From: an uncultured cyanobacterium
Lineage (GTDB): Bacteria; Cyanobacteriota; Cyanobacteriia; CAKZMO01
Direction of reading: 5' to 3'
DNA length: 64,000 nucleotides
Assembly (NCBI GenBank): GCA_963719515.1
Contig: CAVRCJ010000004.1
Coordinates: 95,555 to 159,554, forward strand
Position numbers and translations under genes: made by a program. Below the pieces are notes generated by a model. It was not told where the DNA came from and ran no database searches. It worked only from the letters and a program-made list of their open reading frames with translations. The stretch's first letter is position 1; each line of letters begins with the position of its first letter. Shown piece by piece: positions 5,521 to 62,976 of this stretch.

Positions 5521-5912
5521 GTGACATCCTCCCGACGCTGACAGCAAGCTGTACAGCGCGGGCTTCCTCAGTGACTCCCAGCTATTGCCGGGACATATCC
5601 TGAGATAGGTTTATACTCCGCCTGATGCCCCACGGCAGAGTTTTGAATTTTCATCTCCGCGAGGGAGGATACGCACTATGTGTCGCAGATACATTTGCAA
5701 ACTGAGGAACGGGTGACTTGCAGCTTTCGCCTACGGGCCCGTCACACTCTTTGCGGGGTGTATCACCTTGCTATCTCTATCATACCAACTGCTAGCCTCA
5801 GCGCTGAGCGCACTATCCGCTGTGCATCATTTTGCGGGCGCACTTCGGCTAGCGCGACTCTCATCCCGACGCTCACCCTGACGGGTAGAGCGCGGGGCTT
5901 CCCGTCTAGTCG
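5521..5912 (-). mobile_element. Non-autonomous IS200/IS605-family mini-element (copy A, 392 bp): left end, -10 box, omega-RNA-like scaffold, right end
   Basis: On the minus strand it follows TTTAG (5913-5917). Left hairpin AAGC-CCCGCGCT..AGCGTCGGG; right hairpin GAAG-CCCGCGCT..AGCGTCGGG-AGGATGTCAC. Inverted copy of 56811-57202 with about 3 differences by eye. Confidence 0.88.
5779..5787 (-). promoter_or_regulatory. Extended -10 box TGGTATGAT inside copy A, pointing to the right end and ptxA
   Basis: Position conserved in B (56936-56944 TGGTATGAT), C (6685-6693 TGGTAGAAT) and D (62844-62852 GGGTACAAT). Confidence 0.6.
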
Positions 5913-5918
5913 CTAAAC

Positions 5919-6317
5919 CTACTGAGGTTGCCCCTCTTGATAGGCCCGCCAGCCGCCCCACGCGGTAATCTCCCGCTGTCCCTCACAGGCGATCGCCTCC
6001 CCTAGCACCCCTAGCACTTCTTCCCCGTCAGCAAGCTTCACCTTGCCAATCGCTAGCCCCGAGGGCTCCTGCTGCAAAATCTGCAATAGACCTGCAGACG
6101 GTACAGCCCATACCTCTAGGGCGATCGCGGCGCCACCCTCCTTCACGCGCTGCATAGCCGGGTGGCGATCGCTGATGGACCATAGGCGGTAGGTCGGCTC
6201 CGTCTGGGCATCGTAGAGAAATTCTGCTCCCGCTGCTTGCATGTTGCCGTTGAGTTCTAATCCCCGCATCAGGGTTCCGTTGACGGCAAGCTTGAGAGTG
6301 AAAGAAGGATCTGACAT
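5919..6317 (-). CDS. Allophanate hydrolase C-terminal-domain-like protein (GGCT/AIG2-like fold), stand-alone
   Basis: LAVNGTLMRGLELN, T.P.YRLWSI, P.M.RV..GG.AIALEVW, GL.IGKV.LADG..VLG.LGE, EIT..GGWRAY match the AtzF C-terminal domain pattern. Confidence 0.8.
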   Translation of the reverse strand: MSDPSFTLKLAVNGTLMRGLELNGNMQAAGAEFLYDAQTEPTYRLWSISDRHPAMQRVKEGGAAIALEVWAVPSAGLLQILQQEPSGLAIGKVKLADGEEVLGVLGEAIACEGQREITAWGGWRAYQEGQPQ

Positions 6318-6379
6318 AGAAAGTTTGCTCGCTTGACGTCGATTCTAGGCCTAGGGGGCTGTGAGTCTGTAAGTCTCAA

Positions 6380-6818
6380 GTGACATTCTCCCGGCGCTTA
6401 TCTTACAGATAAATCGCCGGCTTCAGAGAGCGCTCCCCTGCGATTTCCTGCTTATTTTGGCTCTGTCTAGTCACGCAGCACGCTATGCGACCCCGATTAG
6501 CTCCCATCCACAGGCCATTCTTACGTCCAGGTGATGACCCACCCCAGACACCAAGTATTTACTCCTTCACCTCACGTATCCTAATTTGCCGCACTGTTCA
6601 CCAGCCATAGCTGCAGTTTGTGTCAGAACAGAAGGCCGCCACCCGTGTCGTCCCTCTGGGCGGTTTGTCCGCGTTGGCGATGTAATTCTACCATTTGTTC
6701 ATCTCGCCACTGCCCTCAATTTCTGCCCTCGGCATCAGACTAGGGGCGCACCTCGACTCACACGATTTTCACCCCGACGCTGATGCTTTGCTTACAGCGC
6801 GGGGCTTCCATCTAAAAG
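6380..6818 (-). mobile_element. Non-autonomous IS200/IS605-family mini-element (copy C, 439 bp)
   Basis: Minus strand: TTTAG|CTTTTAGATGGAAGCCCCGCGCT..AGCGTCGGGG, internal GCCTGTGGA..AAGCAGGAA, ending GAAGCCGGCGA..AGCGCCGGGAGAATGTCAC. Homologous to 62528-62976. Confidence 0.85.
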
Positions 6819-7447
6819 CTAAAGATCGCCTCATCACATCTAAGCTGCCGCGCCCTGATCTTGCCAACGGCGATCGCCGTGAGAATCGTCGTGCGCGAGA
6901 GCGCAAAGAGTGCGGTGCGGCTAGAGTTGGCGAAAAGCAGATGACCGCATAACCCCAGGAACAGGAGGCCGAACTGGAGGGAGCTGTGGTTTTGTCCTAG
7001 CCAGGAGTAGCCCGAGATAGTGACCCCCTCACGATAAATTTTTCCCGTCCCCGTATGGACCCGTCTGCGCTGACGCTGAAGCTTGAGAGCCCCAGGCAGC
7101 TGGGAGACAAACGACAGGGGGCAGCTGCGCCGCCAGAAATCGTGGCCAAATACCAGCAAAACGAAGATACAGGCTGGAACGACAACCATCCAAAAGACAA
7201 AATTGCCCAGGCTGTAGGGGGCGGCCTCAAAGCACCGTCCCTGAAATTCAACACAGCGGCTGGGGCCTAAACGAAACGGGCTGACAAGGCTCGACCCAGC
7301 GGTCAGCTGGCTCGAAAGGGGGTCGTACAGCAAAGAGCAAAGCAAGATGCCCCATCCGGCTGTGAGTATCCACCTGACGCGGCGCATACTTTTTTCAGGC
7401 AAATCAGCAATCATGACGGGTGTGGCAATAGAGACGGGCCGGTCCAC
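6812..7447 (-). pseudogene. 3'-truncated cyanobacterial membrane protein of the 4Fe-4S-binding (CPL motif) / cyclic-nucleotide-binding type
   Basis: RW.LT.GW..L..SL.YDP, FW..VVP..IF.LLVFGH..WRR.CPLSF.SQ. Recognisable similarity stops at TAIAVG, about 45 bp before copy C; full-length relatives as I recall them continue for hundreds of residues. Confidence 0.65.
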
Positions 7448-7489
7448 CAGGGTGGCGGCCCTTGATGTGAGTAGCCGAGTCAGGGAGAA

Positions 7490-8035
7490 TCAGTTGGCGG
7501 AGAACTCGGGCAGTGCGACTGCGCTGACGTCTGGGGAAACCGACGTCGGAGATTGAGCAAGCAGAGTCACTTTGTCAGCAGCGTTGGCCTGAGCGGGAAT
7601 GGAATAGTTCAACGGTGATGACGCCAGCGGGGTATTGAAGTCGTCTGACAGCAGAAACGCGGCTGTCGTCGCCGTCATCAGGCTACCGAGTCCCGCCAGT
7701 CCTATCTTTAGAGAGGGGTGGGTCAAGGGCGAGCCGCTGTGACGCACAATAGTGTAGCGGCGGCCCTGCGCTGGAGCTGCATTGCCGAGGCCTGAATGCC
7801 CCGTAAACTGCTGATAGTACTCCTGAAAAGAGGTTGCTTCCCCACCTGCCATAGGGTTTTCCCATTCAGTAAACGTAGAATCGCTGGTGACCGGTGCGTC
7901 ATCAGGTAGCGACGATGCTGAGGAAGGAAGGCTAAATCGATTGTTCATAACTGCCGTGGCGCTGGGCGAGCCGAGGGAGGTGAGGCGACCCAAAACGGGA
8001 ACAACCTCGGTTTGCGTGCTTAGGGTAATATCCAT
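7490..8035 (-). CDS. Hypothetical protein with one hydrophobic segment
   Basis: 181-aa ATG-started ORF, Ser/Thr/Pro-rich, no recognised family. Confidence 0.45.
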   Translation of the reverse strand: MDITLSTQTEVVPVLGRLTSLGSPSATAVMNNRFSLPSSASSLPDDAPVTSDSTFTEWENPMAGGEATSFQEYYQQFTGHSGLGNAAPAQGRRYTIVRHSGSPLTHPSLKIGLAGLGSLMTATTAAFLLSDDFNTPLASSPLNYSIPAQANAADKVTLLAQSPTSVSPDVSAVALPEFSAN

Positions 8036-8105
8036 TTCTGTTTTCTCGTAAACAACAGTGGTAAGCGTCGGGGTAGTTTGAAAGTTGCCCTCGTGCGAAG
8101 GGGAG

Positions 8106-8139
8106 GTAGGGGCCTAAAGCGATCGCTTTAGGCCCCTAC
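8106..8139. repeat. Perfect 34-bp palindrome GTAGGGGCCTAAAGCGATCGCTTTAGGCCCCTAC (GTAG-type REP-like, HIP1-centred)
   Basis: Reads identically on both strands; about 10 bp past the stop of the last EPS gene. Confidence 0.85.
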
Positions 8140-8149
8140 TCGCCGAGTT

Positions 8150-10426
8150 CTAGTAGGCTCCCGTCTTGCGCAAAACAGTGTCGACGGTCCGCAGCAAAAT
8201 CCTGACGTCGAGCAGCAGCGACCAGTTCTCGATGTAGCGCAGGTCTAGGGCCACGACGTCTTCAAAATCGAGAATGTCGGAGCGGCCTGAGACCTGCCAC
8301 AGCCCCGTGATGCCGGGCAGCACTTCGTGGCGAACGAAGTGGTGGGGCGAGAATTTCTCGGTGTCGCGGAGAGGTAAGGGGCGCGGACCCACCAGGCTCA
8401 TCTCGCCGAGCAGCACGTTGATGAGCTGGGGCAGCTCGTCTAGGCTGTACTGCCTCAAAAAGACGCCAACGCGAGTGATACGCGGATCTTTCTTCACCTT
8501 AAACAAGATGCCGTCCTGGGTTTCGTTCATCGTCTCAAGCTGAGCCTGCAGGGCTTCCGCGTTGATCACCATCGTGCGAAACTTCCAGGCCTGAAAAAGA
8601 TCGTCTTTGAGACCCATGCGCGTCTGCTTAAAGAAAATCGGACCGGGAGAGTCCAGCTTGATCAGCGTGGCAATCAGCAGCAGCAGCGGCGACAGCAGCA
8701 GCAGCAGCAGCAGCGCCCCGCAAGTATCAAAGACGCGCTTGACTAGAAATTCGCTACCCGTCAGCAGCGGCGGGGTGAGCCTGTGGGAAGAGAGGTCTTT
8801 CCCTAGCTTTGACTCGCGGGGTAGGGCGCTGAGGTTGGCGGGCAGGACCTGCAGCGTGATACCGGCGTTGCGCAGCTTCCAGTACAAAAACATCGAATTT
8901 TCTACGGTTTGCGTTCCGTAGAGAAACACGTCTGAAACCCCCTGCTGGCTAATCGTTTTCAGCGTCAGATCCCAGCCGCTGTTGTCAATTGCGTTGACGT
9001 CAATCCAGCCTTTGAGAGCGTAGCGATTTTGCTGCCCTAGCAGCTGCCGCGCGGCCTCAACCTGGTCGGATGGACAGATTAAAACGCTGGGATAGCGCCC
9101 CGTCCCCGACCGCCGCACTGACGCGATCGCTCTATCGAGGGCGGCGCGCCCCGCCATCACAAAAATGACGCTCAGCAGCCAAACCGCTGCCACTGCAGTC
9201 CCCAGAACAAACCCGTTCGGCTGCAGCGACGCAGCCAAACCGAGGGGCAAAGCCGCCAGCGCCAGCGCCTTGGCTACCGTCCCAGAGTCGCGGCGGTGCT
9301 CCCCCGGACCGTACAGCCCGCAGGCTGCCATAAAGCACACCTGCAGGGCGACGCTGAGCAGCATCACCAGGGTCTGCTCCTGTTGACTCCAAAACCAGTA
9401 GGGCTGGTGGGTCAACCATCGGTTGGCTTCTTGGGCCGCGCTGAGCAGGCTAATGTCTAGGGACAGCAGCGTCAGCACCCGCAGAGACACCAGGGGCAGG
9501 CCTTTTCGCAGAGTCGTGAAGGTGGAGGCCCGCAGGTCGATATTGTTTGAGGAGCGCCTAGCTGCTGGAGGATGAGCGGAGGCTTGAGCAGAAGGTTGAG
9601 TAGGGGCTTGAGAGGGGACCTGGAGAGTCTGGACTCGCTGCCCTAGCATCGTCTTGAAGACGCGGTAGAAGAAGAGAGGATTGCCCACTAGGTAGCGCTG
9701 CCAGAGCCGTCCCGGCTCTGTAAATAGCCGGGTGAGCCACTCTAGGCCCATATCGGTGGCCCAGCGAGGGCCGCGGTTCACCGCTCCGGTATAAAAGTCG
9801 AGGCAGGCTCCTAGGGGAAGAAACACCTTGGCGTCGATGCGGTCCAGGTTTTCGTCAATCCACCACTCCTGCAGCGGCATGCCGAAGCCTACGTAGAGCA
9901 CGTCAGGCTTAAACGCGTTAATGGCGTCAATGACGGCGTCGTTCTCCGGGCCTGACTTCTCGAAGTAGCCGTGGTGGCCCTGAATGCGAAGGTTGGGGGC
10001 GATCGCCTTGAGCTGAGCAATGGCGCGGTCGGTAATGCCGGGCTCACCGGCCAGCAAAAACACCGAGAGATTGTTGCGATCGCAGGCCTGGGCCAAATCC
10101 TCGATGTAGTCAGGGGCGGTCATCCGGTGGCACGACTGCACATCGGCTCCAAGCAGTTTGCTGCCCAGCAGCGTCCCAAATCCATCGCAAAATACGAGGT
10201 CTGACCGATTGAGAAACGAGCGATACCACGGCAGGTCGCAAGAAAAATTGGCGCTGCGGATGTTGACGTTGCCGACGACCGTCTTTTCAGGCCGCTGACC
10301 GGCGTCAACGATGTAGTCAATCAGCTGCTCAACGGTCACCTTGTGAAAACGCGTTTGCAGAAGGGGAACTTCTTCAAACTGCGCTCTCGGCTCGACCAGC
10401 TTGGGGTCTTGTATAGATTGAATCAT
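8150..10426 (-). CDS. Fusion: WecB/TagA/CpsF glycosyltransferase + undecaprenyl-phosphate sugar phosphotransferase (WcaJ/CpsE-like)
   Basis: N-terminus [36 protein letters not shown]-terminus [55 protein letters not shown]. Confidence 0.9.
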
Positions 10427-10928
10427 GGGTTGAACTCAATGGCGTGAAGATCGGACTAAGCAGGTAGACCACACCTTGAGCTTGGGTAAGCAGAACGCCT
10501 ACAGTAAAAATTAAAACGGAGTAAAAAGCTTGCGGATCGAGACCCACGTCTCGTCTGGTTCAAGCAAAAAAGATTGAACCTATGAGTTGGAGATGAATGC
10601 TTATCTACAGGGGGCAGTATTGACCTGCCAAAATTCGGTATTCTAAACCTTTTGCACCGGTTTAAGCGACGAGAAATACCGATAAGTGAGTCATTGAGAG
10701 AATACACTCAACTTAGCGGCCTCTATTGATTACTCAAGACCACGTTGGGTCCGTAATTGTTCCACGCTTAGGCTTTTGTCGATACCTTTGGACGGGGTTA
10801 CGTCACGGATGCGGGAGGTTTGGCCGAGGGGCAACTCCTGTGGCTTTTCCATTACGAAATGGGGACCCGCACAAGTCCCCGTTTCGTAAGCAGCCTTCTT
10901 GGTACTGCACATCGCCAGCTAGGCCTCA

Positions 10929-12164
10929 CTAAGACAGCTGCGCCGCCAGCATTGAGGCAGGCCGCGCCGTCAAAATCTCCTCTAGTTCATTCATCATCTT
11001 GTCCATGCGGGCTACCCAACTGTGGTGGTCGATGGCTATTTGGCGGGCGCGATCGCCCATGGCGGCGAGCTGCTGGCGCTGGTGGTGGGCCTGGGTGAGG
11101 GCGCGCTTCAGGTCTTCCTTGTCCCCCGGCGCGTAAAGAAAGCCGGTTTTCCCCTCCTCCAGCGTGCGCCGGGCATCCTCAAAGGCAGAGGCCACCACGG
11201 GCTTGGCCATGGCCATATATTCGTAGAGCTTCAGAGGCGAGTGATACATCTTGCCCACCTGCATTTTGATCTGCCCAGTGTAGCCAACGTCAAACCCGGC
11301 GATGTAGTCCGGCACCTCTGACCAGGGCACCTGCCCTACAAAGGCCACCTGAGATCCCAGCTCCAGGGTCTGAGCCAGAGCCTCCCACTCAGGCCGCATC
11401 AGGCCGTCCCCCACCACCACCAGACCAACGGGGATGCCCTCAAGCTTAAGCTCGTGAATGGCGCTCAGCAACAGGTCCAGCCCGTGCCAGCTGTACAGCC
11501 GCCCGACGAAGCCCACCGTCAGGTGGGGGAACGGCCGCTTGGGCTTTGCCCGCTTGGGGTTGAAGCGCTCGGTGTCGACGCCGTTGGGCACCACAATCAC
11601 CTTGTCGGCAGAAATGCCCGAGGCCTCAATTACCAGCGATTTGAGCGCCTCAGTGACGCACACCAAGGCGTCGCAGTCGCGGTAGGCCTGCACCTCTAGC
11701 CGCCGCGCTAAGCCGTGGAGCACCGTGGTTTTCCGTTCTGTTTTGGCCTCGTAAAACAGGGGGGCGTGGGTTTCCAGAACCCAGGGCACCCCGCGGCGCT
11801 TAAAAGGTTTTCCCAACGCCTGGAAGGGGGCAAACCGCTCGTAGACCCAGTCCACCTGACCCCCAAGCTCGCTCCAGGCCTCGCGGGCGTACTTCATACC
11901 CAGGACGATTCGCGCCAGGTCTAGCGCCAAAGCGCGAGGCACCCCGCCGCTCATGGCCCGCTCCGACTTGCCGGTCACCCAGGCGGTGGGAACGCGATCG
12001 CCGACGATGAAGGGGTTCACCTGCCAGCCCAGGGCTTCTTTGGCGCGAATGCAGCCCAGAATGTGGGCGCGGGGGCCGCTAATCTCGGCCTCGGGGTGGG
12101 TGGAAATTCGCGGGGCACCGCTGAGGTAGCCGAGTCGGGTGTTAAGGGTGGAGGTAGGTCTCAT
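10929..12164 (-). CDS. Glycosyltransferase family 4
   Basis: VVPNGVD, GFVGRL..WHG, VGDG, SPLKLYEYMAMAKPVV. Confidence 0.9.
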   Translation of the reverse strand: MRPTSTLNTRLGYLSGAPRISTHPEAEISGPRAHILGCIRAKEALGWQVNPFIVGDRVPTAWVTGKSERAMSGGVPRALALDLARIVLGMKYAREAWSELGGQVDWVYERFAPFQALGKPFKRRGVPWVLETHAPLFYEAKTERKTTVLHGLARRLEVQAYRDCDALVCVTEALKSLVIEASGISADKVIVVPNGVDTERFNPKRAKPKRPFPHLTVGFVGRLYSWHGLDLLLSAIHELKLEGIPVGLVVVGDGLMRPEWEALAQTLELGSQVAFVGQVPWSEVPDYIAGFDVGYTGQIKMQVGKMYHSPLKLYEYMAMAKPVVASAFEDARRTLEEGKTGFLYAPGDKEDLKRALTQAHHQRQQLAAMGDRARQIAIDHHSWVARMDKMMNELEEILTARPASMLAAQLS

Positions 12165-12245
12165 GAATTATCCTTAGTGAAAGTTACCTATTAAGCCTGG
12201 GGGCCAGCGATCGCAGGGTGGGCAATGCCCATCCGACCCATGGGA

Positions 12246-13406
12246 CTATTTGACCGGGGAGGCCAGCGATCGCAGCGAGGAGACCCCCATCGCCTGGTGG
12301 TAGAGGCCTTCAAGCTGGCGCGTTTGCCGGTGCAAATCGAAGCTTTGGGTGACCCAAGCTTGCCCCCGGCGGCTGAATCGTCGCCACAGAACTGAGTCCG
12401 TCAGCAGCTGGAGAATGTATTGACCGAGGGTCTCCCAATCTCCCTCCGGAGCAAGAAAGCCCGTCTCACCGTGCATCACCGCCTCTGGAATGCCGCCGCT
12501 GGCAAAGCTGACTACGGGAAGCCCCATGGCCTGGGCTTCAACAAAAACGATGCCAAAGGCCTCGGCATCCCCCGAGGGCGCAATGACGCTAGGGACGCTA
12601 AACACCTGCGCCCGGTTCATCCAGGCTTTGACCTGCTCGGGAGACTGGCGGCCCAAGAAGCGATAGCGCTTTAGGGTTGCCTTGGCCTGCTCTTCTAGGG
12701 AAGAGCGCAGCGTCCCATCGCCAATTACCACCAGCTCAACATCGGGGCGCACCTGCTGGACCTGGGCCATTGCCTTGATGAGGCGATCGCAGCCTTTCTT
12801 CTCCACAAGCCTGCCCGTAAACAGCACCACCGGCTCTCGGGAAACGGTGCTGTCTGGGCAGAAGCGGGCGGTGTCGACGCCGATGTAGTGCACCTTCACC
12901 TTCTCGGGGGGAAACCCTTGATTGAGCATGGTGCGCTGAATAAAGTGGGACACCGCAATGAAGCAGGTGGCTTTTTTTTGAAGCCGACTGCGGTGGCGTA
13001 GATAGGTGCGGTGGCTGGAGGTGGACTGGCGAATGGCCTGTTCCGTCAGGGTGACGTCGTAGCCGTGCATCGTCACCAGCAGCGGAATATTCAGTCCCTG
13101 AGCGAGGGGTAAGGCTCTTAGCCCGTCTGGCCCGAAGTGGGCGTGGACCAGGCTGGGCTGCAGCTTCTGGGCGCGCTCGAAGAAATCGGGGGCAAAGCCC
13201 TGGAGCTTATAGGAAAGCTTCCACAATTTGCCCAACCGACCGGCGTCGACAACTAGGGTCCGCTCTGCCGGCAGCGGTAGCCCCTCAACCCGCTGTATCC
13301 CCGCGTAGTGGGGCACAAACTCCTGCAGCGCTTCCGCCTGCGATCGCACAAAGGTGGCTGAATAGGCCAGCAGGTCATCGCAATAGATCAAGGCTGATTT
13401 AGCCAT
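12246..13406 (-). CDS. Glycosyltransferase family 4 (WcaL/AmsK-like)
   Basis: HAHFG, T.HGYD, GRLVEKKG, GDAEAFG.V..EAQAMGLPVV, GIPE; ATG at 13406 preferred. Confidence 0.9.
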   Translation of the reverse strand: MAKSALIYCDDLLAYSATFVRSQAEALQEFVPHYAGIQRVEGLPLPAERTLVVDAGRLGKLWKLSYKLQGFAPDFFERAQKLQPSLVHAHFGPDGLRALPLAQGLNIPLLVTMHGYDVTLTEQAIRQSTSSHRTYLRHRSRLQKKATCFIAVSHFIQRTMLNQGFPPEKVKVHYIGVDTARFCPDSTVSREPVVLFTGRLVEKKGCDRLIKAMAQVQQVRPDVELVVIGDGTLRSSLEEQAKATLKRYRFLGRQSPEQVKAWMNRAQVFSVPSVIAPSGDAEAFGIVFVEAQAMGLPVVSFASGGIPEAVMHGETGFLAPEGDWETLGQYILQLLTDSVLWRRFSRRGQAWVTQSFDLHRQTRQLEGLYHQAMGVSSLRSLASPVK

Positions 13407-13435
13407 GGCTTCAGTTCTATACCTTTTCAAAACCG

Positions 13436-14677
13436 TTATCTAGACGTAAGCACCCATGGCTCCGCCTGAACCGGCGGCGGGTCTGCAGGCTCGTCTCGCT
13501 CTTGAGGCGCGTGCCGCGTGCAGACCGTCGTGACGTAAAAAATCCAAAAGAAAGTATTTTGCAGCAGCCAGACGCTTTCCGTCAGGTTGTAGAGCAGCAT
13601 AAACGTTAGGTAGGCCAGGGGCAGCAAATACTCAGAGGTCTGGGTGACGCTCACCCGCCGGATGGCCCGGTAGAACGCAAACGCCAGCCCCAGCCCAAAT
13701 ACAATCATGCCCAGCAGCCCCACGTCGAGCCAAAGGTCCAGGTAGCCGTTGTGGGAATGCCTAGGGAACCAAGGCTCTAGAAACCAAACGTCTGCAGACG
13801 GCCCCGACCAGCCGCGCCAAAATCCGCCGTAGCCATAGCCCCACCACAGCCGCTCTTGAATCTTCGTCAAGGCGATGCTCCACAGGTCCGTTCGCCCTGA
13901 GAAGGTGAGATCCTTGCCGGCGGCCCCCACCACGGACTCAATCTGGGCCAAAATACCGATAAACACGCCGCTGCCCAGCAGCAGGGTGACGCTGAGCACC
14001 GGCACCGCCAGCTTGTAGTAAAGCCGCACGATGCGGTAGACCGGCATGAAGGCCAGCAGCAGCACAAACAGCGCCAGAGCCGTTTTCGAGTTAGACAACA
14101 CCAGCAGCGCCACCGACAGCCCCAGCCCCGCCCAATGAACCCAGGCCCACCGCTGCCCCTGCTGCGCGTTCAACAAAAACACCATGCCGCTCAGCACCAT
14201 CACCCGGCCCAAGAGGTTTTTGTGGTGATAAATTCCTTGCCAAGACTGCCCCCCCTGCAGGCCATAGCTGGGCAACCCCAGGGCAAACACAAAGCTCAGG
14301 GCCACCGCAATCCCCATCACCCAGGCCAGCAGCTGCAGCTGCTGTTTGAGGGAGTAACGCTCCGCCAGGTAGACGCCAAACAGCGTCGTTCCCGTGAGGG
14401 CGATCGCCTTTTGCACCGTTTCTCCAGGGGCCGTCGACCAAACCACCGACGCCGCGATAAACCCCATGTAGAGCCACAGCAGCTTGGCCCGCACAATCAC
14501 GGGCAGCGCCGTCCGCCACTGCAGCGCCAAAAGCAGGGTCGTCATGGCGTATACCCCCAGCCAAAACACCTGACGCAGGGCATGGGGAATCAGCAGAATG
14601 AATGACTCGGTGGACAGCAGCAGGGTCAGCACCGCAAATCCCGGTTCGATACGACGAAAAGAAATGGTAAAAGGCAT
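13436..14677 (-). CDS. O-antigen ligase / Wzy-like polymerase
   Basis: Multi-TM protein; WQG.Y.HKN.LG, S.SKT, TFSGRT.LW, GYGYGGFW, HSHNGYL. Confidence 0.88.
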   Translation of the reverse strand: MPFTISFRRIEPGFAVLTLLLSTESFILLIPHALRQVFWLGVYAMTTLLLALQWRTALPVIVRAKLLWLYMGFIAASVVWSTAPGETVQKAIALTGTTLFGVYLAERYSLKQQLQLLAWVMGIAVALSFVFALGLPSYGLQGGQSWQGIYHHKNLLGRVMVLSGMVFLLNAQQGQRWAWVHWAGLGLSVALLVLSNSKTALALFVLLLAFMPVYRIVRLYYKLAVPVLSVTLLLGSGVFIGILAQIESVVGAAGKDLTFSGRTDLWSIALTKIQERLWWGYGYGGFWRGWSGPSADVWFLEPWFPRHSHNGYLDLWLDVGLLGMIVFGLGLAFAFYRAIRRVSVTQTSEYLLPLAYLTFMLLYNLTESVWLLQNTFFWIFYVTTVCTRHAPQERDEPADPPPVQAEPWVLTSR

Positions 14678-24238: not shown

Positions 24239-24579
24239 TGTGTTTAACGTTCTGGTAGACCCCCTCTAGCTCCCCTACGCCCTGCGGGCAGGCTAACGCC
24301 AAAGCTCAAGGGGGAGAACTGCACTTCCCCCCTTACCAAGCTACGGTGTACACACGAGTCGGTCTGACCCCCTCTAGCTTCCCTACGCCCTGCGGGCAGG
24401 CTAACGCCAAAGCTCAAGGGGGAGAATTGCCCTTTCCCCCCTTAGTAAGGGGGGATTAAGGGGGGTAATGCAGCATTTAGGCTTCTCAACAAAGATGTGT
24501 GTACACGGTAGCCTTATCAAGGGGGGAATTAAGGGGGGTAAAACCAAAGCGTGTCGCCTTTTCCAGAGTCGCTAAACAC
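24239..24579. mobile_element. Nested MITE-like composite
   Basis: Inner element 24341-24511 has 15-bp TIRs CTAC(G/C)GTGTACACAC and is flanked by CCTTACCAAG/CCTTATCAAG. There is a ~63-bp direct repeat at 24258 and 24366, and outer GTGTTTA..TAAACAC ends. Confidence 0.78.
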
Positions 24580-49726: not shown

Positions 49727-49738
49727 AAACGGGCGTTG

Positions 49739-53491: not shown

Positions 53492-53512
53492 CGAGGTGCT
53501 CTTGGCTTGATA

Positions 53513-53556: not shown

Positions 53557-53843
53557 GCCGCATTACCTATGCTGCGCGAGGGTTTGAGCCCGCGGCCTTG
53601 CCTTAAGCAATGTAGCCAGAGCTATAAGCGCCGCTGGCGGGCGATCGCACTGCTGAGACAATGGGGTCCCCGCTCAAAAGCGCCATGCAGCGGGGCGGTC
53701 GCCCGCTTCGCGTGAGATTTGCCAAAACAGTATCTCACGCGCCTCTACTAGACAGCGCTCTACCTGCAGCGTTCTTCACGCCGCTGGATAACTCTGGAGT
53801 CTCGAATCTATGAGTGCGATCGCAGAATCCAAAAACCCGTAGC

Positions 53844-55121
53844 TCAAGCCGTATGCCGCCGCTTGCGTTTGCCCGGGCTACCGGTATTGGGCTTTCTGCT
53901 TCGAGCAGAACCTGCCTGAGGTTTCGACGTGCGCGACTTCGATCGGCCCCCCTTATCTTGCTTCTCTCCGCCTGGCTCAGGGCCAGCCACCGGCTCATAC
54001 CCTGGAACAATATCTTGAGTGAGCTTGCGTTTGAGTAACTTTTCAATCCCCTTTAACAGCGGCTGCTCATCGTTAGACACTAGCGAAATGGCCTTTCCTT
54101 CGTTTCCGGCCCGCCCAGTCCGACCAATGCGGTGAACGTAGTCCTCTGGCACGTTGGGCAATTCAAAGTTGACGACGTAGGGCAATTGGTCAATGTCCAA
54201 ACCCCGTGAGGCAACGTCTGTCGCGACAAGAACTCGAACCTTGCCTTTCTTAAAGTCGCTCAAGGCGCGGGTTCGCGCCGTCTGGCTTTTGTTGCCGTGA
54301 ATCGCGGCGGTCGTCAGTCCGTCTTTGGCCAGCTGTTCCGCCAGGCGGTTGGCGCCGTGCTTGGTGCGGGTGAACACGAGCACCTGCGGCCAGTTGTTGG
54401 AGCCAATGAGATACGACAGCAGCTCCCGTTTGCGGCTTTTATCTACGGGATGCAGGTGCTGCTCGACTTGCTCAGCAGTGGTGTTGCGGGGCGAAATTTC
54501 AATCTGCACCGGATTGTGCAGCAGCTGACTAGCCAGCTTGCGGATGTCGGTTGAGAAAGTGGCGGAGAACATCAGGGTCTGCCGTGAGGCGGGGAGCTGG
54601 GCCAAAATTTTGCGGATGTCGCGAATGAACCCCATATCCAGCATGCGATCGCATTCATCCAGCACCAATATTTCAACCTTAGAGAGGTCAACTGTGCCCT
54701 GGCTCAGGTGATCGAGTAGCCGGCCCGGCGTCGCCACCACAATGTCGCTGCCCTGTTTCAAAGCCTGAATTTGGCGCACGATGCCCACGCCGCCAAACAC
54801 CACAACCGACTTGATGGGCAGGTATTTGCCATAGGTATTGACGCTGTTGTTCACCTGAGCGGCCAATTCGCGGGTCGGCGTCAGAATGAGGGCTCGCGGG
54901 GCTCGCTGCGCTTTGGCAGAATGCTGGCTGCTCAGGCGCTGCAGCAAGGGCAAGGTAAACCCTGCCGTTTTGCCAGTACCCGTCTGAGCGCTAGCAAAAA
55001 TGTCGTGCCCCTGCAAGATTGGGGGAATCGCCTGCTCCTGAATGGGCGTTGGCGAGTCGTAGCCCTCTTCGTTGACAGCGCGTAAAAGCTCGGCAGCAAG
55101 GCCAAGAGTCTCAAATGTCAT
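53844..55121 (-). CDS. rhlE: DEAD-box RNA helicase, RhlE/CrhC-like
   Basis: [23 protein letters not shown] variant, [11 protein letters not shown], basic tail. Confidence 0.9.
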
Positions 55122-55305
55122 GGATTTTTAGTCGCTCCTAGTGCCCCTACCCCAAGTAAAATGCTGGGACCAGTCTTAAGAGCAATAAATGTATGGTTCG
55201 CGTTGGACGGCTCGGGTTAACAAGCTCCAAGGCTGCAACGCTAGACCAGCGGTAAGTTGCAGTCTCCTACTCTAACACACGCTCGATAGGCGATTATAAA
55301 CCCGC

Positions 55306-55740
55306 TTACTTTGCGAATAGCTCCGAGTCGATATTTCTAAATGCTTTAAACTCCAGAGCGTTACCCGAAGGATCTAGAAAAAACATTGTGCCTTGTTCTC
55401 CAGGCTGCCCTTTAAACCTTATGTAAGGCGCAATGACAAAATCATCAACGAACTCGCTAGCTCTTTGAGCGAAAACTTCCCAGTCGTCAAAGGTCATAAC
55501 GACGCCACAGTGAGGCACCGGCACGCCGTGTCCGTCTACCAGATTTGAAATACTGGTTATCTTTCCAGCTTTGCCGATTTGCGGGTTGAGGTGGGTGACA
55601 AACTGGTGGCCAAACATATTAAAATCAATCCAGTTTTCCGCGCTTCTGCCCTCGGCAAGCCCCATCTTCGCGCCGTAGAAGTCCCTAGCCTCGTCAATAT
55701 CGCGAACCTGGACCGATAGATGAAACGGCGTTAGCGGCAT
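55306..55740 (-). CDS. VOC (glyoxalase/dioxygenase) family protein
   Basis: PFHL, EGRS...W.DF...GHQ, VPVPH.G, DPSGNALEFK; GGAGGA RBS before ATG 55740. Confidence 0.88.
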   Translation of the reverse strand: MPLTPFHLSVQVRDIDEARDFYGAKMGLAEGRSAENWIDFNMFGHQFVTHLNPQIGKAGKITSISNLVDGHGVPVPHCGVVMTFDDWEVFAQRASEFVDDFVIAPYIRFKGQPGEQGTMFFLDPSGNALEFKAFRNIDSELFAK

Positions 55741-55952
55741 CACTCCTCCATACGCGAATGTGCGCGCGTCAGTAGTCAGCGGCAAACGGGGTCATTTCCG
55801 ACTGCCTTACGAAAACAATATAGGCTACTCGCGCAGCGCTATCCAAACAGTTTGTTTCCTGCAGCACATTTATCCCCTTAGGGCCTGATAACGTAGTGCT
55901 GATACAGCTTTAAAAAGACTGAGCCCCGCGCGCTTTACAATTTTCTCCTCAG

Positions 55953-56810
55953 ATGATACCCAGCTGGAAAACGGTAAAACCCTACGTCCTAGCAGCACCT
56001 CAGGCGATCGCCCTGTGCCTGTTCCTGGTTTTCCCCATTGCGCTAATCGCGGTGGTGAGCTTCTGGGAGTTCAACGGGTATTCCATGACGCCCGCCTTCA
56101 CGCTGGACAACTACGCCGGCATCTTCACCTCCGACGTCACCCTCAAAACCTACCTCAACACCTTTAAGTTCGTGGGCTTGGTGTGGTTGGTGACGCTGCT
56201 CATCGGCTATCCCGTGGCCTACTTCTTGGCCTTCTGCGTGCCCAAGCTGCGCTGGCAGGTGCTGCTATTTTTGCTCTGCACTATCCCCTTCTGGACCTCT
56301 AACATCATCCGCATGATTTCTTGGGTGCCGCTGCTGGGAAAGGAGGGGCTGGTGAATCAGATTTTGCTGGGAAGCGGGTTACTAGACCAGCCCCTGGAAT
56401 TCTTGCTTTACTCCGATTTTGCGGTGGTGCTGGGGCTGGTGCATCTCTACGTCATTTTTATGATTGCGCCCATATTCAATAGCCTCATGCGCATCGATCG
56501 CACCTTAATTACTGCAGCAGAGGACATGGGAGCCTCGGGCCTAGCGGTGTTTCAGGAGGTGGTGCTGCCCCTGTCGGCTCCCGGCATCGCCATTGGCTCT
56601 ATTTTTATCGTCACCCTGGTAATGGGGGAGTTTGTCACGGTGCGGCTGATGGGGGGCGGGCAGGCGGCGTCCATCGGGAAACTGATTCAAACGCAGATTG
56701 GCAGCCTGCAGTATCCGCTGGCGGCGGCGAACGCCATGGTGCTGCTGCTGGTGACGCTGCTGCTGGTGGTGTCCATTTTGCAGGTGGTGAACATTCGCAA
56801 AGAACTTTAG
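55953..56810 (+). CDS. ABC permease, PotB-like
   Basis: GYPVAY, PFWTS..IR..SW, AA.D.GA, PLS.PGI; the stop codon TAG is part of the TTTAG target of copy B. Confidence 0.9.
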   Translation: MIPSWKTVKPYVLAAPQAIALCLFLVFPIALIAVVSFWEFNGYSMTPAFTLDNYAGIFTSDVTLKTYLNTFKFVGLVWLVTLLIGYPVAYFLAFCVPKLRWQVLLFLLCTIPFWTSNIIRMISWVPLLGKEGLVNQILLGSGLLDQPLEFLLYSDFAVVLGLVHLYVIFMIAPIFNSLMRIDRTLITAAEDMGASGLAVFQEVVLPLSAPGIAIGSIFIVTLVMGEFVTVRLMGGGQAASIGKLIQTQIGSLQYPLAAANAMVLLLVTLLLVVSILQVVNIRKEL

Positions 56811-57202
56811 CTACTAGACAGGAAGCCCCGCGCTCTACCCGTCAGGGTGAGCGTCGGGATGAGAGTCGCGCTAGCCGAAGTGCGCCCGCAAAATGATGCA
56901 CAGCGGATAGTGCGCTCAGCGCTGAGGCTAGCAGTTGGTATGATAGAGATAGCAAGGTGATACACCCCGCAAAGAGTGTGACGGGCCCGTAGGCGAAAGC
57001 TGCAAGTCACCCGTTCCTCAGTTTGCAAATGTATCTGCGACACATAGTGCGTATCCTCCCTCGCGGAGATGAAAATTCAAAACTCTGCCGTGGGGCATCA
57101 GGCGGAGTATAAACCTATCTCAGGATATGTCTCGGCAATAGCTGGGAGTCACTGAGGAAGCCCGCGCTGTACAGCTTGCTGTCAGCGTCGGGAGGATGTC
57201 AC
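56811..57202 (+). mobile_element. Non-autonomous IS200/IS605-family mini-element (copy B, 392 bp)
   Basis: TTTAG|CTACTAGACAGGAAGCCCCGCGCT..AGCGTCGGG ... GAAGCCCGCGCT..AGCGTCGGGAGGATGTCAC; inverted near-identical copy of A. Confidence 0.88.
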
Positions 57203-57392
57203 GCGGTAGGCTCCTCGCTCGTCGATATTGGAATAGGAGTAGCGTTGCCGACTGGGGGTATACATTTTGTCAGGATACGGCAGTGCCTTGTCCCTACCGC
57301 CTGACTTTGGACCTACCCAAGACCGGGAATTCATACCTAGAGTCATCAATTCCGTCAACGCCGGAAATCTCTAAACCGATGTTCTACTCGGA

Positions 57393-60300
57393 ATGCCCAC
57401 TGCTGGAATGAACGAGTCAGCTCTAAAGTCTCACGATCGCCCCTTTCATGTTTTGGCGTGCCTACTGAGCCTAGGCGTGATCGGCCTAGGAACGCTTGTC
57501 GTCGTCGGCTGGATTTTCAACGTTGATGGACTGAAGGGGGTTTCGCCCGATCTGCCGACGATGAAGGTGAACACGGCCCTGTGCCTGCTGCTGGGCGGGA
57601 CATCGCTGTCATTGGCCCAAATCACAACCCTGCCCCAGGTGGGGCGGTGGCGACGGAGCTGCCAGTTTCTCAGCCTGTGTCTTGCGGGGCTGATGGTTTG
57701 GCTGGGAGGCAGTACGCTGCTGGAATACGGGCTGGGGACCGACCTGGGAATTGATCAATGGCTGATTCTCCAGCCGGAGCCGTCTGGAAGCCTCGCCGCT
57801 CCTGGGCGCATGGCCCCTAACACCGCGATCGCCTTTTGGACGCTGGGTATAGCGCTAATATTCGTGCAGTACCCGGTGACCTGGTGGGGGGCGCAAGCGC
57901 TGGCCGCGCTGGCCGGCTGTATTAGCTTTGTTGCCCTGTTGGGATACCTCTATGGGGCCATTCCTTTCTACGGCGTAGGCTCACTGACGGGAATGGCCCT
58001 GCACACGGCCCTGGGCTGTCTCGCCCTCAGCTTGGGGATCCTGTGTCTATACCCCCAGCGGGGACTGTTGGCCATTGTGGTTGGGCCTGACCTGGGCAGT
58101 CGGCTGTTGCGGCGGCTGTTGCCCTTGCTGCTGGTAATTCCACCGACGATTTGGGGCATTGCCGAAAGCGAGTGGCTGCAAAACTACTACGGCGCTGACT
58201 ACGCCGAGGCGATCGCCAGCACCGTCAATATCCTTCTGCTGTCGGCCATTGTCACCTGGACTGCCCATCAGCTCAATCAGCTCAGCCGCAGGGAAGGGGC
58301 CGCTCGGCGGGAGCTTGAGGTCTCTCAAAAGCGGCTCAAGGGCATATTACAGCATGTGCCCGTTGGTGTTTTTCAAACCACGACGGCGGGGCAGTGTACA
58401 TACGTCAATCAGCGCTGGTCAGACATGACCGGACTGACGCTAGAACAGGCCCGGGGGGACGGATGGATCGCTGCGCTCCACCCCGTGGACCGCGAAGCCG
58501 TCTTTACCGAATGGCAGCAGTCCATTGAAGGCGACCGCCCTTTCGTGCTGGAATATCGCTTCATTAAGCCAAGAGGAGAAGTGGTTTGGGTCCAGGGTAA
58601 TGCTGTGGCCCTACGCAGCGACGCCGGGGAGGTGATTGGCTATTTGGGCAGCACCCTAGATATTTCTGAGCGGAAACAGGCAGAGATCACGAATCAGGCG
58701 CTGATTCAGGCGATTCCCGACTACCTGGTACATATCCGACAGGACGGAACCTACGTCGATGTTTTAAACAAAAGCAGTACGTCCGTAGATCTTTTATATC
58801 CCGAGGCCAACGTGCCAGGATGCCACATTACAGATGCGCTGCCCCGCGATCTTGCCGCCGAGCGCATGAGCTACGTGCGCCGCGCTCTAGCCACGGGCCA
58901 AACCCAGCAGTATGAGTATCAGATCACCGTTCGGGACTGCCTTTACGACGAAGAGGCGCGGTTGATTCCCCTGGATGACGTCAACGTCTTGGCGGTGATT
59001 CGCGATATCACCGGACAAAAGCAAAAAGAGCAGTTCCTCAAACAGGCCAAACAGCAGGCAGAGGCCGCTAACCGGGCCAAAAGTGAGTTTTTGGCCAACA
59101 TGAGCCACGAAATTCGCACGCCCATGAACGCCGTTTTGGGGTTTGCCGAACTGCTGCAGCCCATGATTACGGAGGCGATCGCGCAAGATTACCTGCGGGC
59201 GATCGCCTCCAGCGGAAAAACCCTGCTGGGCCTGATTAACGACATCTTAGACCTGTCGAAAATTGAGGCCGGGCGACTCGAACTCTATCTAGAGGCCGTC
59301 GATATCCGCATGCTGGCGCAGGATGTCTGCGCTATTTTCAGTCAAAACGCCCGCAGCAAAGCCATCGGCCTTGCCCAAACCGTTGCCGCAGAGGTCCCCC
59401 GCTACCTGCTGGTTGATGAAATCCGGCTGCGTCAGATTTTGTTCAACGTGGTGGGCAACGCCCTTAAGTTCACTGAGGCGGGCCAGGTCAACATTTGCAT
59501 CGACCTCTGCGCGCCCCCCTGTCCATCACCCGGCTCGCCAGCATTATCCAACGCCAATCAGGTTTGCCTCCAGATTGTCGTTCAAGATACGGGAATTGGT
59601 ATTGCCCCGACCCAGCAAGCCCGCATCTTTGAAGCCTTTACCCAAAGCCAAGGTCAGAGCGCCCGCGAGTTTGGGGGCACCGGTCTAGGACTCGCCATCA
59701 CCCGACGCCTGGTTGACTTGATGGGCGGTGAAATCACCGTCACCAGCCTGCTGGGACAGGGCAGCAGCTTTACCTTTTTCTTTCCCGAGGTCGAAATCTC
59801 TGTCCCCAAAGCAGCTTCGGTGGTCTCAGACACCACCGACATCAATCTTCGCCAGTTTGCGCCCGCTCGCCTCTTGATTGTGGATGACGTCGCCTCCAAC
59901 CGCGACGTGCTTGCCGGCTATTTTCGCGGGACGCCCCACACCCTCGCCTTTGCCGAGAACGGCGAGGCGGCGGTGCGTTTGGCTCTCACCTGGCAGCCTG
60001 ACGTAATCTTGATGGATCTGCGGATGCCCCGCATGGATGGTCTAGAGGCCTCTCGCCGCCTTAAGGCCACAGAAGCGACTCGCCACATCCCCATCGTGAT
60101 AGTGACCGCTTCATCCCAGGCACAAGACGAAGTTGCGCTAAGAGAGCTATGCGAGGGATTTATTCGCAAACCCGTCAGCTATGGCAGTTTGGTCGCGGCC
60201 CTGAAGTCGGTGATGGCGATCGCGGAGCCTGCCCCATCGGCGATGCTCTTGCCATCCCCCAAGGCCGAAACAAAAATCAGACCAGATTCAGCGGCAGCCC

Positions 60301-60590
60301 TATCCTCAGAGCAGCGTCAGCGCCTTATCCAACAGCTACAGTCTCTGGCGACTACCCTCTGGGAACCGCTGCAGCAAACCCTGTCGGTAGATCAAGTTGA
60401 GGCATTCTCAGCTACTTTGAATCAGCTGACAGCTGAGATGCCCTATCCCCCGCTATCGCAGTACGCCCAAACCCTAACCCAGCAGCTAGACGACTTTGAC
60501 TGGACAGCGATTCCCCAGACTGTAGCTGCATTTATGCCTCTGCTGCACAACCTCACGGAGGGAGCGGTGCACCCCATAGAACCTATTTAA
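57393..60590 (+). CDS. Membrane-bound hybrid histidine kinase (TM region, PAS x2, HisKA, HATPase, REC)
   Basis: [52 protein letters not shown]. Confidence 0.95.
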
Positions 60591-60824
60591 GCGTCCTCAC
60601 GGTGACTTGGCGATCGCGAATTTCATGTTTTCTTAAACACTGAAGACAGAAGGGTATCAAACCGGTACATTAAATCTATATGTGAATGATTATCTTTGGA
60701 GTTTCTCAGGCCGGATTTCTCCGACTTGCGTCCCCGCCTCAGATCAAGTGCGTTGTTTTTACCGACCCCTCGACGTAGTACATCCCGCTGTCTACTCTCT
60801 AGCTCTATACCGGGGTGACCTATT

Positions 60825-62531
60825 GTGAAACCTCTCGCTCCCGCAGTTGCCACATCTAGCCTGATTTTGATTGTTGACGATCAACCAGCTAACCTCAAAG
60901 TGCTGCGCGGGCTGTTTGCCAACATGGGGCATCGGCTTACCTTTGCCGCGAGCGGGCAGCAGGCCCTTGAGCGAGCCCGCTCCGCCCAACCCGACTTAAT
61001 TTTGCTAGACTTGATGCTGCCCGACATGAGTGGCTTAGAGGTATGTCAACGGCTCAAGCAAGCGGAAAGCACCGCCGACATTCCCATTATCTTTTTGACG
61101 GCCAGCCACGAACTCGACCACCTGCTAGAAGCCTTTGAGCAGGGCGCTGTGGACTACGTCACCAAGCCGTTCCGCTCATCTGAGCTGTTGACCCGCGTGC
61201 GGCATCACCTGTTGCTCCAAAATACAAAAGCTGCCCTGGCCGAGATCAATCATCATCTGGAGGAACAAGTTCAGCAGCGTACGGCTCAGCTTCGGCAGGC
61301 GCTTACTTTTACGGACATTTCTCAGCGCATTATTGAGCGCGTCCGAGACAGCTTGGATGAAACCCAAATCCTTTCAACGGTGGTGCATGAGCTGACCCAG
61401 GTGCTGGCATTAGAGCGAGCACAAACCGGTCTCTATAACGTAGCTGCAGAGACCTCTACCATTACTCAAGATTACGCAGTTTCTTCCAGTGTAGATAGGG
61501 TGAATCGGTTTGCGGACTATCAAGACATTTATAACCCGCTGCTGCAGGGCGAGACCATTCAGCGCCTCCTGCCCGCAACGCCGGCGCACCAGGTGCATCA
61601 GCTTACAGAGGCCGCGACGCTTCTAGCCTGTCCGCTCCAGCACGAGCGCGAAATTATTGGTGACCTGTGGCTCTACCGACTTCACCAGCAGCCTTTTAGC
61701 GACAATGAAATTCAGCTCGTAGAGCACGTCGCGGCCCAAAGCGCGATCGCCATTCGTCAAGCCCGCTTCTACCGGGCCTCCCAAGCGCAAGTCGAAGAGC
61801 TAGAGCGCCTCAACTACGCCAAAGACGACTTTTTGAAGACCATTTCCCACGAGCTGAAAACGCCGCTGACGACCATCAAAGCCGCTGCAGGCACCCTCGG
61901 CATATTATTTCAACAGCCCGACTGGCGATCTAAAGAAGCGCAGATTGCCCAAGAATCGCTCAATTTTTTAAACGAAGGATGCGATCGCGAAATTCAGATT
62001 GTCAACAATCTATTGGAGCTCGTCCATCTCGATATCGGCACCGTAGACTCGATGATGGAGCTGACGGATATTCCCACCATAGTGGAGGGAGCGTCTCGAT
62101 TTCTCAGCCAGCGCTTCAGTCAGCGCAACCTTACGCTAAAAATAAGCCTTTCCGAGACCCTGCCGCTGCTGTTAACCCACGCTGAGATGCTGGAGCGCAT
62201 CTTGCTGGAGCTGCTCGACAATGCCTGTAAGTACACGCCGCCCGGAGGAAAAGTCGAAGTGGCCGCATCCCACAGCGATCGCGCCGTTGAATTCACGGTG
62301 AGTAATTCGGACGTTACCTTACCGGATGAAAATCTCGATCGCATGTTTGAAACGTTTTATCGCTTACCCCAGCCCGATCGCTGGCAGCATGACGGCGTCG
62401 GGCTGGGGTTAGCTCTGGTGAAAAAGCAGGTGGACTACTTGGGCGGGAGCATTTCCCCGCACTACGACAACCGGTGCCTCACCTTTAAGCTCAGCTTTCC
62501 CTTGCGAAATCCCAGAGAGTTGGTAAGGTGA
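60825..62531 (+). CDS. Hybrid histidine kinase (REC, GAF, HisKA, HATPase)
   Basis: ILIVDD, LLDLMLP, DYVTKPF, GAF region, SHELKTPLT, NACKYT, G.GLGL; the stop codon lies in the first bases of copy D's right end. Confidence 0.93.
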   Translation: MKPLAPAVATSSLILIVDDQPANLKVLRGLFANMGHRLTFAASGQQALERARSAQPDLILLDLMLPDMSGLEVCQRLKQAESTADIPIIFLTASHELDHLLEAFEQGAVDYVTKPFRSSELLTRVRHHLLLQNTKAALAEINHHLEEQVQQRTAQLRQALTFTDISQRIIERVRDSLDETQILSTVVHELTQVLALERAQTGLYNVAAETSTITQDYAVSSSVDRVNRFADYQDIYNPLLQGETIQRLLPATPAHQVHQLTEAATLLACPLQHEREIIGDLWLYRLHQQPFSDNEIQLVEHVAAQSAIAIRQARFYRASQAQVEELERLNYAKDDFLKTISHELKTPLTTIKAAAGTLGILFQQPDWRSKEAQIAQESLNFLNEGCDREIQIVNNLLELVHLDIGTVDSMMELTDIPTIVEGASRFLSQRFSQRNLTLKISLSETLPLLLTHAEMLERILLELLDNACKYTPPGGKVEVAASHSDRAVEFTVSNSDVTLPDENLDRMFETFYRLPQPDRWQHDGVGLGLALVKKQVDYLGGSISPHYDNRCLTFKLSFPLRNPRELVR

Positions 62532-62976
62532 CATACTCCCGACGCTCATCTTTTAGATGGAGCGCGGGCTTCTTGGCTCACGCACCACAATTTAATGGAT
62601 GCCGCGCAAGAAGGTTTCCTGCTTCATCTGGTCCTGTCTAGTTACGCAGCAAGCCGTGCAACCCCGATTAGATCCCATCGACAGGCGATTTGTTTAATGT
62701 CCAGGCAATGACCAACCCCAGACAGTGACGAGTATTCAATTTCCAGCTACGTTTTCTACCGTCTGCACTGTTCACCAGCCAAGGGCTGTACGTTTGTGTC
62801 AGGATAGCAGGCCGCCGCCATGAAATAGTTTGAGCTTGGTTCAATTGTACCCTTTGCTCGCCTCGGCGCTGCCCTTAATTGCCGCCTTCGGCATCCAGTC
62901 AAGGGCGCACCTCGACTCGCTCGCTTACATCCCGACGCTGATGCTGCGCATACAGCGCGGGGCTTTCACGAACTAG
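62528..62976 (-). mobile_element. Non-autonomous IS200/IS605-family mini-element (copy D, 449 bp)
   Basis: Minus strand: TTTAG|CTAGTTCGTGAAAGCCCCGCGCT..AGCGTCGGG ... GCCTGTCGA..TGAAGCAGGAA ... GAAGCCCGCGCT..AGCGTCGGGAGTATGTCAC. Confidence 0.86.

Follow-up and report, generated by a model that had tools for sequence, protein, structure and literature searches.

Protein-free IS200/IS605 cassettes in a cyanobacterial genome as probable carriers of TnpB ω-RNA scaffolds

Protein-free sources of guide RNA for the TnpB nucleases of IS200/IS605 elements have been described before. Palindrome-associated transposable elements (PATEs) "often encode" ω-RNAs that need the TnpB of other elements in trans, as stated in the accessible portion of a preprint (Meers et al. 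2023, PMC10055086), and the section of PMC10691335 that cites Altae-Tran 2021 reports mobilised stand-alone ω-RNAs and states that their function in trans has been demonstrated. Here we analyse four candidate elements of this kind, named A, B, C and D, and a fifth relative, E, in a stretch of 64,000 nucleotides from an uncultured cyanobacterium (GenBank assembly GCA_963719515.1, contig CAVRCJ010000004.1, positions 95,555 to 159,554; hereafter the window). We consider it probable that A–D, and E with them, are PATEs, that is, non-autonomous IS200/IS605 derivatives without open reading frames (ORFs) that carry TnpB ω-RNA scaffolds and home in trans at their own donor sites.

Alignments and genome-wide copies place all four elements where a preliminary description of the window had put them, and with the layout it had given. 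A (392 bp) runs from 5912 to 5521 on the minus strand and B (392 bp) from 56811 to 57202 on the plus strand, the two being 99% identical; C (439 bp, 6818 to 6380) and D (449 bp, 62976 to 62528), both on the minus strand, share about 73% identity. Each element is directly preceded by TTTAG, at 5913..5917 (−) for A, 56806..56810 (+) for B, where it includes the host stop codon TAG, 6823–6819 for C and 62981–62977 for D, and each ends in TCAC. The elements have no terminal inverted repeats and carry subterminal imperfect hairpins, GAAGCCCCGCGCT..AGCGTCGGG at the left end and GAAGCCCGCGCT..AGCGTCGGGAG, with a bulged T in its 3′ arm, at the right end. All four also contain a CGARGTGCGCCC..GATGC block and a −10-like hexamer (TATGAT, TAGAAT or TACAAT), and the similarity between the A/B and C/D pairs is found at the ends and through this block up to the hexamer. 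The order in A is left-end hairpin, promoter block, −10 box, 5′ leader, T-type scaffold (defined below), right-end hairpin and TCAC. Taken by itself, the 12-mer is weak evidence (4 matches against 1.21 expected, a number reached in 1 of 100 shuffles); the elements are real despite this statistic because the full-length alignments and the genome-wide copies settle the matter. The longest frame inside A–D codes for 78 amino acids, and a tblastn search with the resident TnpA and two TnpB proteins gave no high-scoring segment pair on the whole contig to which the window belongs; both results agree with the earlier statement that the cassettes have no plausible ORF and the window neither tnpA nor tnpB.

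A blastn census of the 5.28-Mb genome found 53 full copies of the A/B type (96–100% identical), 18 of the D type (about 99% identical) and two of the C type plus a truncated one, with an 85% copy of C at G000:C1:7103-7555; near-identical copies thus occupy more than 70 different sites. The bases in front of the A/B-type copies are TTTAG in 47 of 53 cases, GTTAG in three and CTTAG in three. TTTAG also precedes 12 of the 18 D-type copies, and the A/B and D copies that do not follow TTTAG follow NTTAG, bar one that follows TCTAG. The core target is therefore TTAG with a T preferred in front. TCAC is the end of all full copies except one D copy (TCGC). The right flanks differ at every copy and are not duplicated, i.e. 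there is no target-site duplication.

The same genome contains the tnpA and tnpB carriers with matching ends for which the preliminary description had suggested a search. Carriers of the T family, about 1.49 kb long, have left ends 93–96% and right ends 85–88% identical to those of A/B. A longer, 1.8-kb T form encodes a 159-amino-acid Y1 transposase (Pfam Y1_Tnp, E 7.5e-41) and a 398-amino-acid TnpB with OrfB_IS605, Cas12f1-like TNB and HTH_OrfB_IS605 domains (Pfam E 2.4e-23); the autonomous carrier L001 (G000:C10:312041-314085) combines both proteins with A/B-like left and right ends. By tblastn the genome holds 18 full TnpB_T genes (at least 90% identity), three TnpA genes, six full TnpB_U genes (419 amino acids) and many further, more distant TnpB genes. 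TnpB_T aligns with the solved ISDra2 TnpB over residues 8–381 (E 5e-44), the acidic residues of GVDVG, HEKL and RDHNAA, which we take to be the catalytic D-E-D residues, being in register. The transposon-associated motif (TAM) of ISDra2 TnpB is not TTTAG, unlike that of the cassettes described here. For A/B, the genome holds an intact TnpB_T with the same TAM, TTTAG.

Two other end families have a bearing on C, D and E. Carriers of the U family (e.g. L003, C10:347622-349267) and cassettes of a type that we call U2 stand after TTTAA; TTTAG precedes the carriers of the T family as well as the A/B, C and D cassettes. From hairpin 1 through to the right end, U2 cassettes (about 430 bp, e.g. L004) share 84–88% identity with D, and in their 5′ half they are unrelated to it; D is a mosaic, its 5′ half being C-like and its 3′ half U2-like. 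In the third IS200/IS605 end family, V, the target is about CTACC, the right end reads ..GGGAGAGCGTCAAT in the carriers, and the 3′ ends of tnpB, like those of U, resemble the core of C, D and E. Element E (about 2376–2797, plus strand), which lies beyond the range that the preliminary description gave for the family, has V-family ends, the same promoter block as the other cassettes and a U/V-like core at 2641–2768 (117.6 bits), with a second copy at G000:C7:179659-180063 (80%). Its ends are degenerate, and it looks immobilised because a short tandem insert interrupts its −10 box and GCGTTAG stands as its last motif.

The 3′ half of the cassettes resembles the tnpB 3′ end and right-end region, as proposed earlier, by homology to the TnpB carriers of the same genome. 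Positions 282–398 of B match the final 117 nt of T elements at about 80% identity, and a remnant of the TnpB C-terminus (..AVGHQA..SG.VSA.AGSH*) can still be read in the A/B type by tblastn and translation; an in-frame stop lies further upstream, and tblastn found no coding content in the cassettes beyond this remnant. The T-type ω-RNA scaffold extends over 5521..5645 (−) in A and 57078..57202 (+) in B and comprises hairpin 1, a CUCAG/CUGAG stem enclosing a hairpin, and the right-end hairpin. Hairpin 1 shows compensatory changes between PATEs and carriers: its loop GUGGGRCAUCA is kept, and its stem reads CUCUGCC/GGCGGAG in A/B versus GGGCU/AGCCC in T. In C (6445..6562, −) and D (62611..62736, −) the equivalent region is a U/V-like ω-RNA core in which hairpin 1 and an A-rich linker are followed by a GCCUGUGGA..GAAGCAGGAA stem that encloses a covarying internal hairpin and CUAG; together with that of E, this core aligns with the U and V tnpB 3′ ends.

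We built two covariance models, R1 for the C/D/E/U/V core (scores of 111 bits for C and 121.6 bits for D) and R2 for the T/A/B scaffold. The R1 alignment of 37 sequences has 93.6% of its cells paired, with 181 double-change cells versus 51 in shuffles and slid controls at 33–45%, and the R2 alignment of 32 distinct sequences has 91.1% paired, with 172 versus 56 double-change cells and slid controls at 32–45%; each alignment was fitted to its model, a circumstance in the model's favour, and the margins are large. The right-end hairpin covaries as well (R2 helix 5, 95.8% paired). The region thus keeps a covarying fold; the preliminary description had suggested building a covariance model. Because G:U pairs are frequent in the helices, the structure fits the tnpB-sense strand. 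An antisense reading of the scaffold was considered and rejected because many G:U pairs of the supported helices would turn into A:C. The proposed division into two scaffold subtypes stands insofar as A/B have the T-family scaffold and C/D the U/V-like one; it does not stand as a clean split, the subtypes being mosaics and E having V-family ends and a broken −10 box. Considering (i) the hairpins, (ii) insertion after TTTAG, (iii) the TCAC end, (iv) ends in common with the TnpA/TnpB carriers, and (v) a 3′ stretch of 125–200 nt that is homologous to the carriers and keeps its structure, the cassettes are protein-free IS200/IS605 derivatives.

Upstream of the scaffold, the cassettes differ from the carriers. 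A −10-like hexamer lies about 130–145 nt from the left end in every cassette type, often after TGN: TATGAT in A (5779..5784, −), with TGG in front (extended −10 form), TATGAT in B (56939..56944, +), with TGG at 56936–56938, TAGAAT in C (6690–6685, −) and TACAAT in D (62849–62844, −). The hexamer of same-genus A/B-type copies is TATACT or TATAAT, i.e. still −10-like, and ORF-less relatives in other genomes display TANNAT-type hexamers at the same place, as read by eye. The block between the left end and the −10 box is common to A/B, C/D and E and absent from the TnpB carriers. It can fold as a hairpin, GUGCGCCC / GGGCAGCGC with a bulged A, which maps to 5800–5844 (−) in A, to 56879–56923 (+) in B, upstream of the −10 box and with GUGCGCCC.. 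/ ..CAGCGC arms, to 6706–6752 (−) in C and to 62865–62911 (−) in D, where the arms GGUGCGCCC / GGGCAGCGCC with a bulged A enclose an inner GCC-GAA-GGC hairpin. Over 11 sequences from five genomes 95.2% of the cells of this hairpin are paired; a U:G is invariant, and in three pairs both partners have changed. The structure was drawn from the same 11 sequences that score it, which favours it; the A/B copies contain mismatches.

Downstream of the −10 box lies a family-specific leader of 110–130 nt, which is likewise absent from the TnpB carriers. Compared with two same-genus copies, the A/B leader shows a change of GAUACA/UGUAUC to GAUGCA/UGCAUC as well as the insertion of a G together with its pairing C. 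The leaders of C and D are 53% identical overall and contain a conserved island of about 55 nt. With these compensatory changes and those of hairpin 1, the cassette interior is not decaying freely; neutral decay of the interior is among the outcomes that the preliminary description had named as refuting its reading.

The bases directly after TCAC are the four guide sequences that had been predicted. Placed according to the published layout of TnpB ω-RNAs, the putative guides are TGAGCGTCTCTCAAGA for A (5505..5520, −) and GCGGTAGGCTCCTCGC for B (57203..57218, +), with those of C and D starting at 6379 and 62527, respectively, and running downward. We propose the following model. The internal −10 promoter would transcribe an RNA of 250–310 nt, the 3′ end of which would consist of the TnpB ω-RNA scaffold and about 16 nt of flank serving as the guide. 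TnpA supplied from elsewhere would excise the cassette and re-insert it; TnpB, also from elsewhere, would load the RNA and cut the scarless donor joint (TTTAG plus flank), and recombination with the sister copy would then restore the cassette. As scarless excision puts the flank beside TTTAG and each guide is the right flank of its own element, the RNA would, under the published model, target its own donor joint only. On this reading the cassettes would live off the TnpA and the TnpB of the elements from which they derive, and each guide would protect its own insertion site, directing TnpB to no other DNA.

Several observations weigh against this model. On the sense strand of A, B, C and D, a strict scan for the two σ70 hexamers calls no promoter. 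Cyanobacterial promoters often have no −35 element, and it is because the −35 is absent that the strict scan calls no hexamer; the promoter and the transcription of the cassettes are inferred from the −10-like sequence. As the conserved hairpin with its invariant U:G lies upstream of the −10 box, the transcript would, if this hairpin is an RNA helix, start further upstream than we assume. The opposite strand of A/B carries one σ70-like site (GAGACA-16-TATACT; 57106–57133, −, in B and 5590–5617, +, in A) and one terminator-like hairpin (56898–56915, −, in B and 5808–5825, +, in A), and together these two would delimit an antisense RNA about 200 nt long. C and D combine a T-like target, TTTAG, with a U/V-like scaffold, and since the U family uses TTTAA, target and scaffold disagree, so that a cognate nuclease for C and D is at best putative. 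As to the fold, apart from the fitting of the alignments to R1 and R2, the loci that entered the comparison are best matches of models seeded mainly with PATEs. Rfam gives no match at gathering thresholds over the window, and neither RNA falls within an Rfam family. When the elements, the carriers and 20 related loci were scanned permissively, this returned chance-level matches and a weak resemblance of D to RAGATH-18 (RF03064; 17.4 bits versus a gathering threshold of 44.9), which A, B, C, the carriers and the 20 other loci do not share. Lastly, the copies within the genome are 96–100% identical and have few variable sites, and so carry no signal of selection.

This last point also speaks for a rival explanation, namely that the cassettes are inert, MITE-like (miniature inverted-repeat transposable element-like) deletion remnants still moved by TnpA, whose RNA-like region is functionless and looks conserved only through a recent burst. 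The broken −10 box and degenerate ends of E and the TCGC end of one D copy would fit such remnants. The A/B interior (positions 74–281), however, has no similarity to the T element and is therefore not its deletion product; the fold of the scaffold is kept by compensatory changes both between PATEs and carriers and across more than 30 genomes; three end families and further genera retain both the −10 hexamer and the promoter block; and the A/B leader has compensatory changes of its own. We thus regard inert remnants as unlikely. We hold it to be just as unlikely that the RNA acts otherwise than in homing, or beyond it, as a decoy that soaks up TnpB, as a regulator acting through its 5′ domain, or as an outward-reading mobile promoter. 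Such roles would account for 5′ leaders (about 110–130 nt) and a block hairpin that are conserved, structured and absent from the carriers, for a ratio of cassettes to carriers of about 3:1, and for the position of C, whose RNA end points into a 132-amino-acid ORF from 62 nt upstream, on the same strand and with no terminator-like site between. Nothing ties the 5′ domains to a target, though, and they have no Rfam match; moreover, it is the TnpB scaffold that is constant, and the 5′ domains that vary between subfamilies.

The preliminary description had read the cassettes as a dispersed, mobile guide repertoire that directs TnpB in trans to genome, plasmid or phage targets in the manner of a CRISPR array. 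About 75 different guides in a genome with many TnpB genes invite this reading, which we nevertheless judge highly improbable: the guide is whatever flank adjoins the insertion; of 72 guides, not one matches the genome a second time (at least 14 of 16 bases, preceded by TTAG); and the four guides of the window have 0, 1, 3 and 1 exact 18-mer matches to viral contigs, about chance level, none of the five following TTAG. Homing at the own donor site, which we prefer, could be elaborated further. In this extension, which is possible but which we doubt, the upstream hairpin, −10 box, family-specific leader and scaffold would form a dedicated modular ω-RNA expression unit, not a simple product of deletion, that has been shuffled among three or more end families (T, U and V) and persists across cyanobacterial families, the cassettes being hyperparasites that out-compete the guide RNAs of the carriers for TnpB. 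If that were true, the upstream hairpin and the leader would be new functional parts, for expression control, RNA stability or TnpB loading, such as described PATEs and stand-alone ω-RNAs are not known to have.

The short spacer that holds A separates two conserved ORFs, and in a relative, G004, these ORFs are about 90 bp apart without A. B directly follows the TAG stop of a 285-amino-acid ORF (55953–56810); four same-genus genomes are homologous to the left flank of B precisely up to the stop/TTTAG, and in G004 the TTTAG at this place is unoccupied. Exact empty sites are unreadable at the positions orthologous to A and B, the intergenic DNA having diverged. The last bases of D provide the stop codon of a 568-amino-acid kinase-like ORF (60825–62531; site 62526–62531), a frame which without the insertion would end one codon later on the TAA of the target (..AGC TAA). 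C and A have the same orientation around a native 132-amino-acid ORF (6317–5919), so that C's left end lies on one strand with the right end of A, and the two could in principle be used together. B and D, with their left ends outward, bracket 5.3 kb (56811–62976) that hold a 1065-amino-acid ORF and the kinase-like ORF. A composite transposon B...D was considered and rejected: in G001 and G003 the outer ORFs do adjoin each other, but in G004 the first ORF is followed directly by the kinase-like gene, the two-gene block lies on another contig in G001, and there is no sign that the PATEs moved the block. Elsewhere in the window, at 24258–24440, two 75-nt direct repeats (repeat-scan family D5), 95% alike, stand 108 nt apart.

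Two same-genus genomes contain full A/B-type copies (93% identity, and 86% in a copy cut by a contig end), and a search of the 38 remaining relatives gave none. More widely, R1 has matches in 36 of 151 genomes of the class, with 48 matches in the cassettes' own genome, and R2 in 70 of the 151. At 17 of 22 R1 loci no frame longer than 156 amino acids ends at the scaffold, and five have a frame of 365–420 amino acids; at the R2 loci, 18 of 27 have frames of at most 168 amino acids, one has 250 and eight have 404–432. Because these counts take the best match per genome, with 1500 nt upstream, of models seeded mostly with PATEs, they are not frequencies and show only that ORF-less and tnpB-bearing forms are both common across cyanobacterial families. 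A scan of genome contigs with a 16-base pattern, which is too short, gave 93 stretches, nearly all from unrelated bacteria; the only relevant ones, two contigs of cyanobacterial metagenome-assembled genomes (L070 and L090), have the match statistics of L007 and L008 and add no new variant. For variants of the A/B type, a 20-base metagenome scan returned nothing and a 28-base scan one T-type tnpB carrier (L153).

If the RNAs are expressed and loaded, one genome would hold about 75 natural guide-only units beside about 25 intact nuclease genes, and would thus be a natural system for studying how TnpB chooses among competing guide RNAs. It would also let one ask whether guide-only elements persist by homing in trans, and what a stand-alone ω-RNA needs, such as a promoter and a leader, once it is no longer part of a tnpB mRNA. 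With its TTTAG TAM, the T-type scaffold, compact at about 125 nt, may interest TnpB engineers.

Among known systems, three resemble the cassettes in part. In ISDra2 TnpB–ω-RNA complexes (PDB 8EXA/8BF8/8H1J) the scaffold likewise overlaps the tnpB 3′ end and the right end, and the guide comes from the flank; the scaffold sequences are unrelated at the level tested, and the RNA described here stands alone. RAGATH-18 RNA (RF03064) is the source of the right-end RNAs (reRNAs) of IS607 TnpB, according to the accessible part of PMC11061315, and D shows the CCUGU..GAAGCAGGAA closing stem of its model; at the score given above, membership was rejected. A Clostridioides difficile PATE with IStron ends (Zedaveinyte et al. 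2023, 10.1101/2023.11.20.567912), in the portion of that preprint available to us, is also an ORF-less IS200/IS605-family derivative with a structured RNA. IStrons contain a group I intron, whereas the elements described here have no Intron_gpI match at E up to 10, and an IStron identity was rejected on this ground. The Nezha MITE of Anabaena/Nostoc was rejected as a relative because the terminal inverted and direct repeats given for it, as far as the available description goes, do not fit the layout.

The stand-alone ω-RNAs (Altae-Tran 2021 via PMC10691335), as outlined in the accessible part of that source, are close as well: they too have neither effector nor transposase, and their genomes also hold effector-bearing OMEGA loci (named for obligate mobile element-guided activity). 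Close counterparts, too, are the PATEs of Geobacillus stearothermophilus (PMC10055086), which, in the available text, are protein-less, have the left and right ends of resident TnpB/TnpA elements, carry an ω-RNA for a TnpB made elsewhere, and follow the same homing and retention logic. In the literature that we searched on TnpB together with PATE, MITE, stand-alone or cyanobacteria, neither the promoter block nor the leaders are described. Protein-less ω-RNA elements are thus already published, and the present case is a well-documented further example that extends the idea to cyanobacteria. Relative to the Geobacillus PATEs as that text presents them, the cassettes described here, known from sequence alone, have a cyanobacterial host, other ends, a TTTAG target, three end families and mosaic subtypes, and they have in common a hairpin-containing promoter block, and each has a leader of 110–130 nt, neither of which is present in their carriers.

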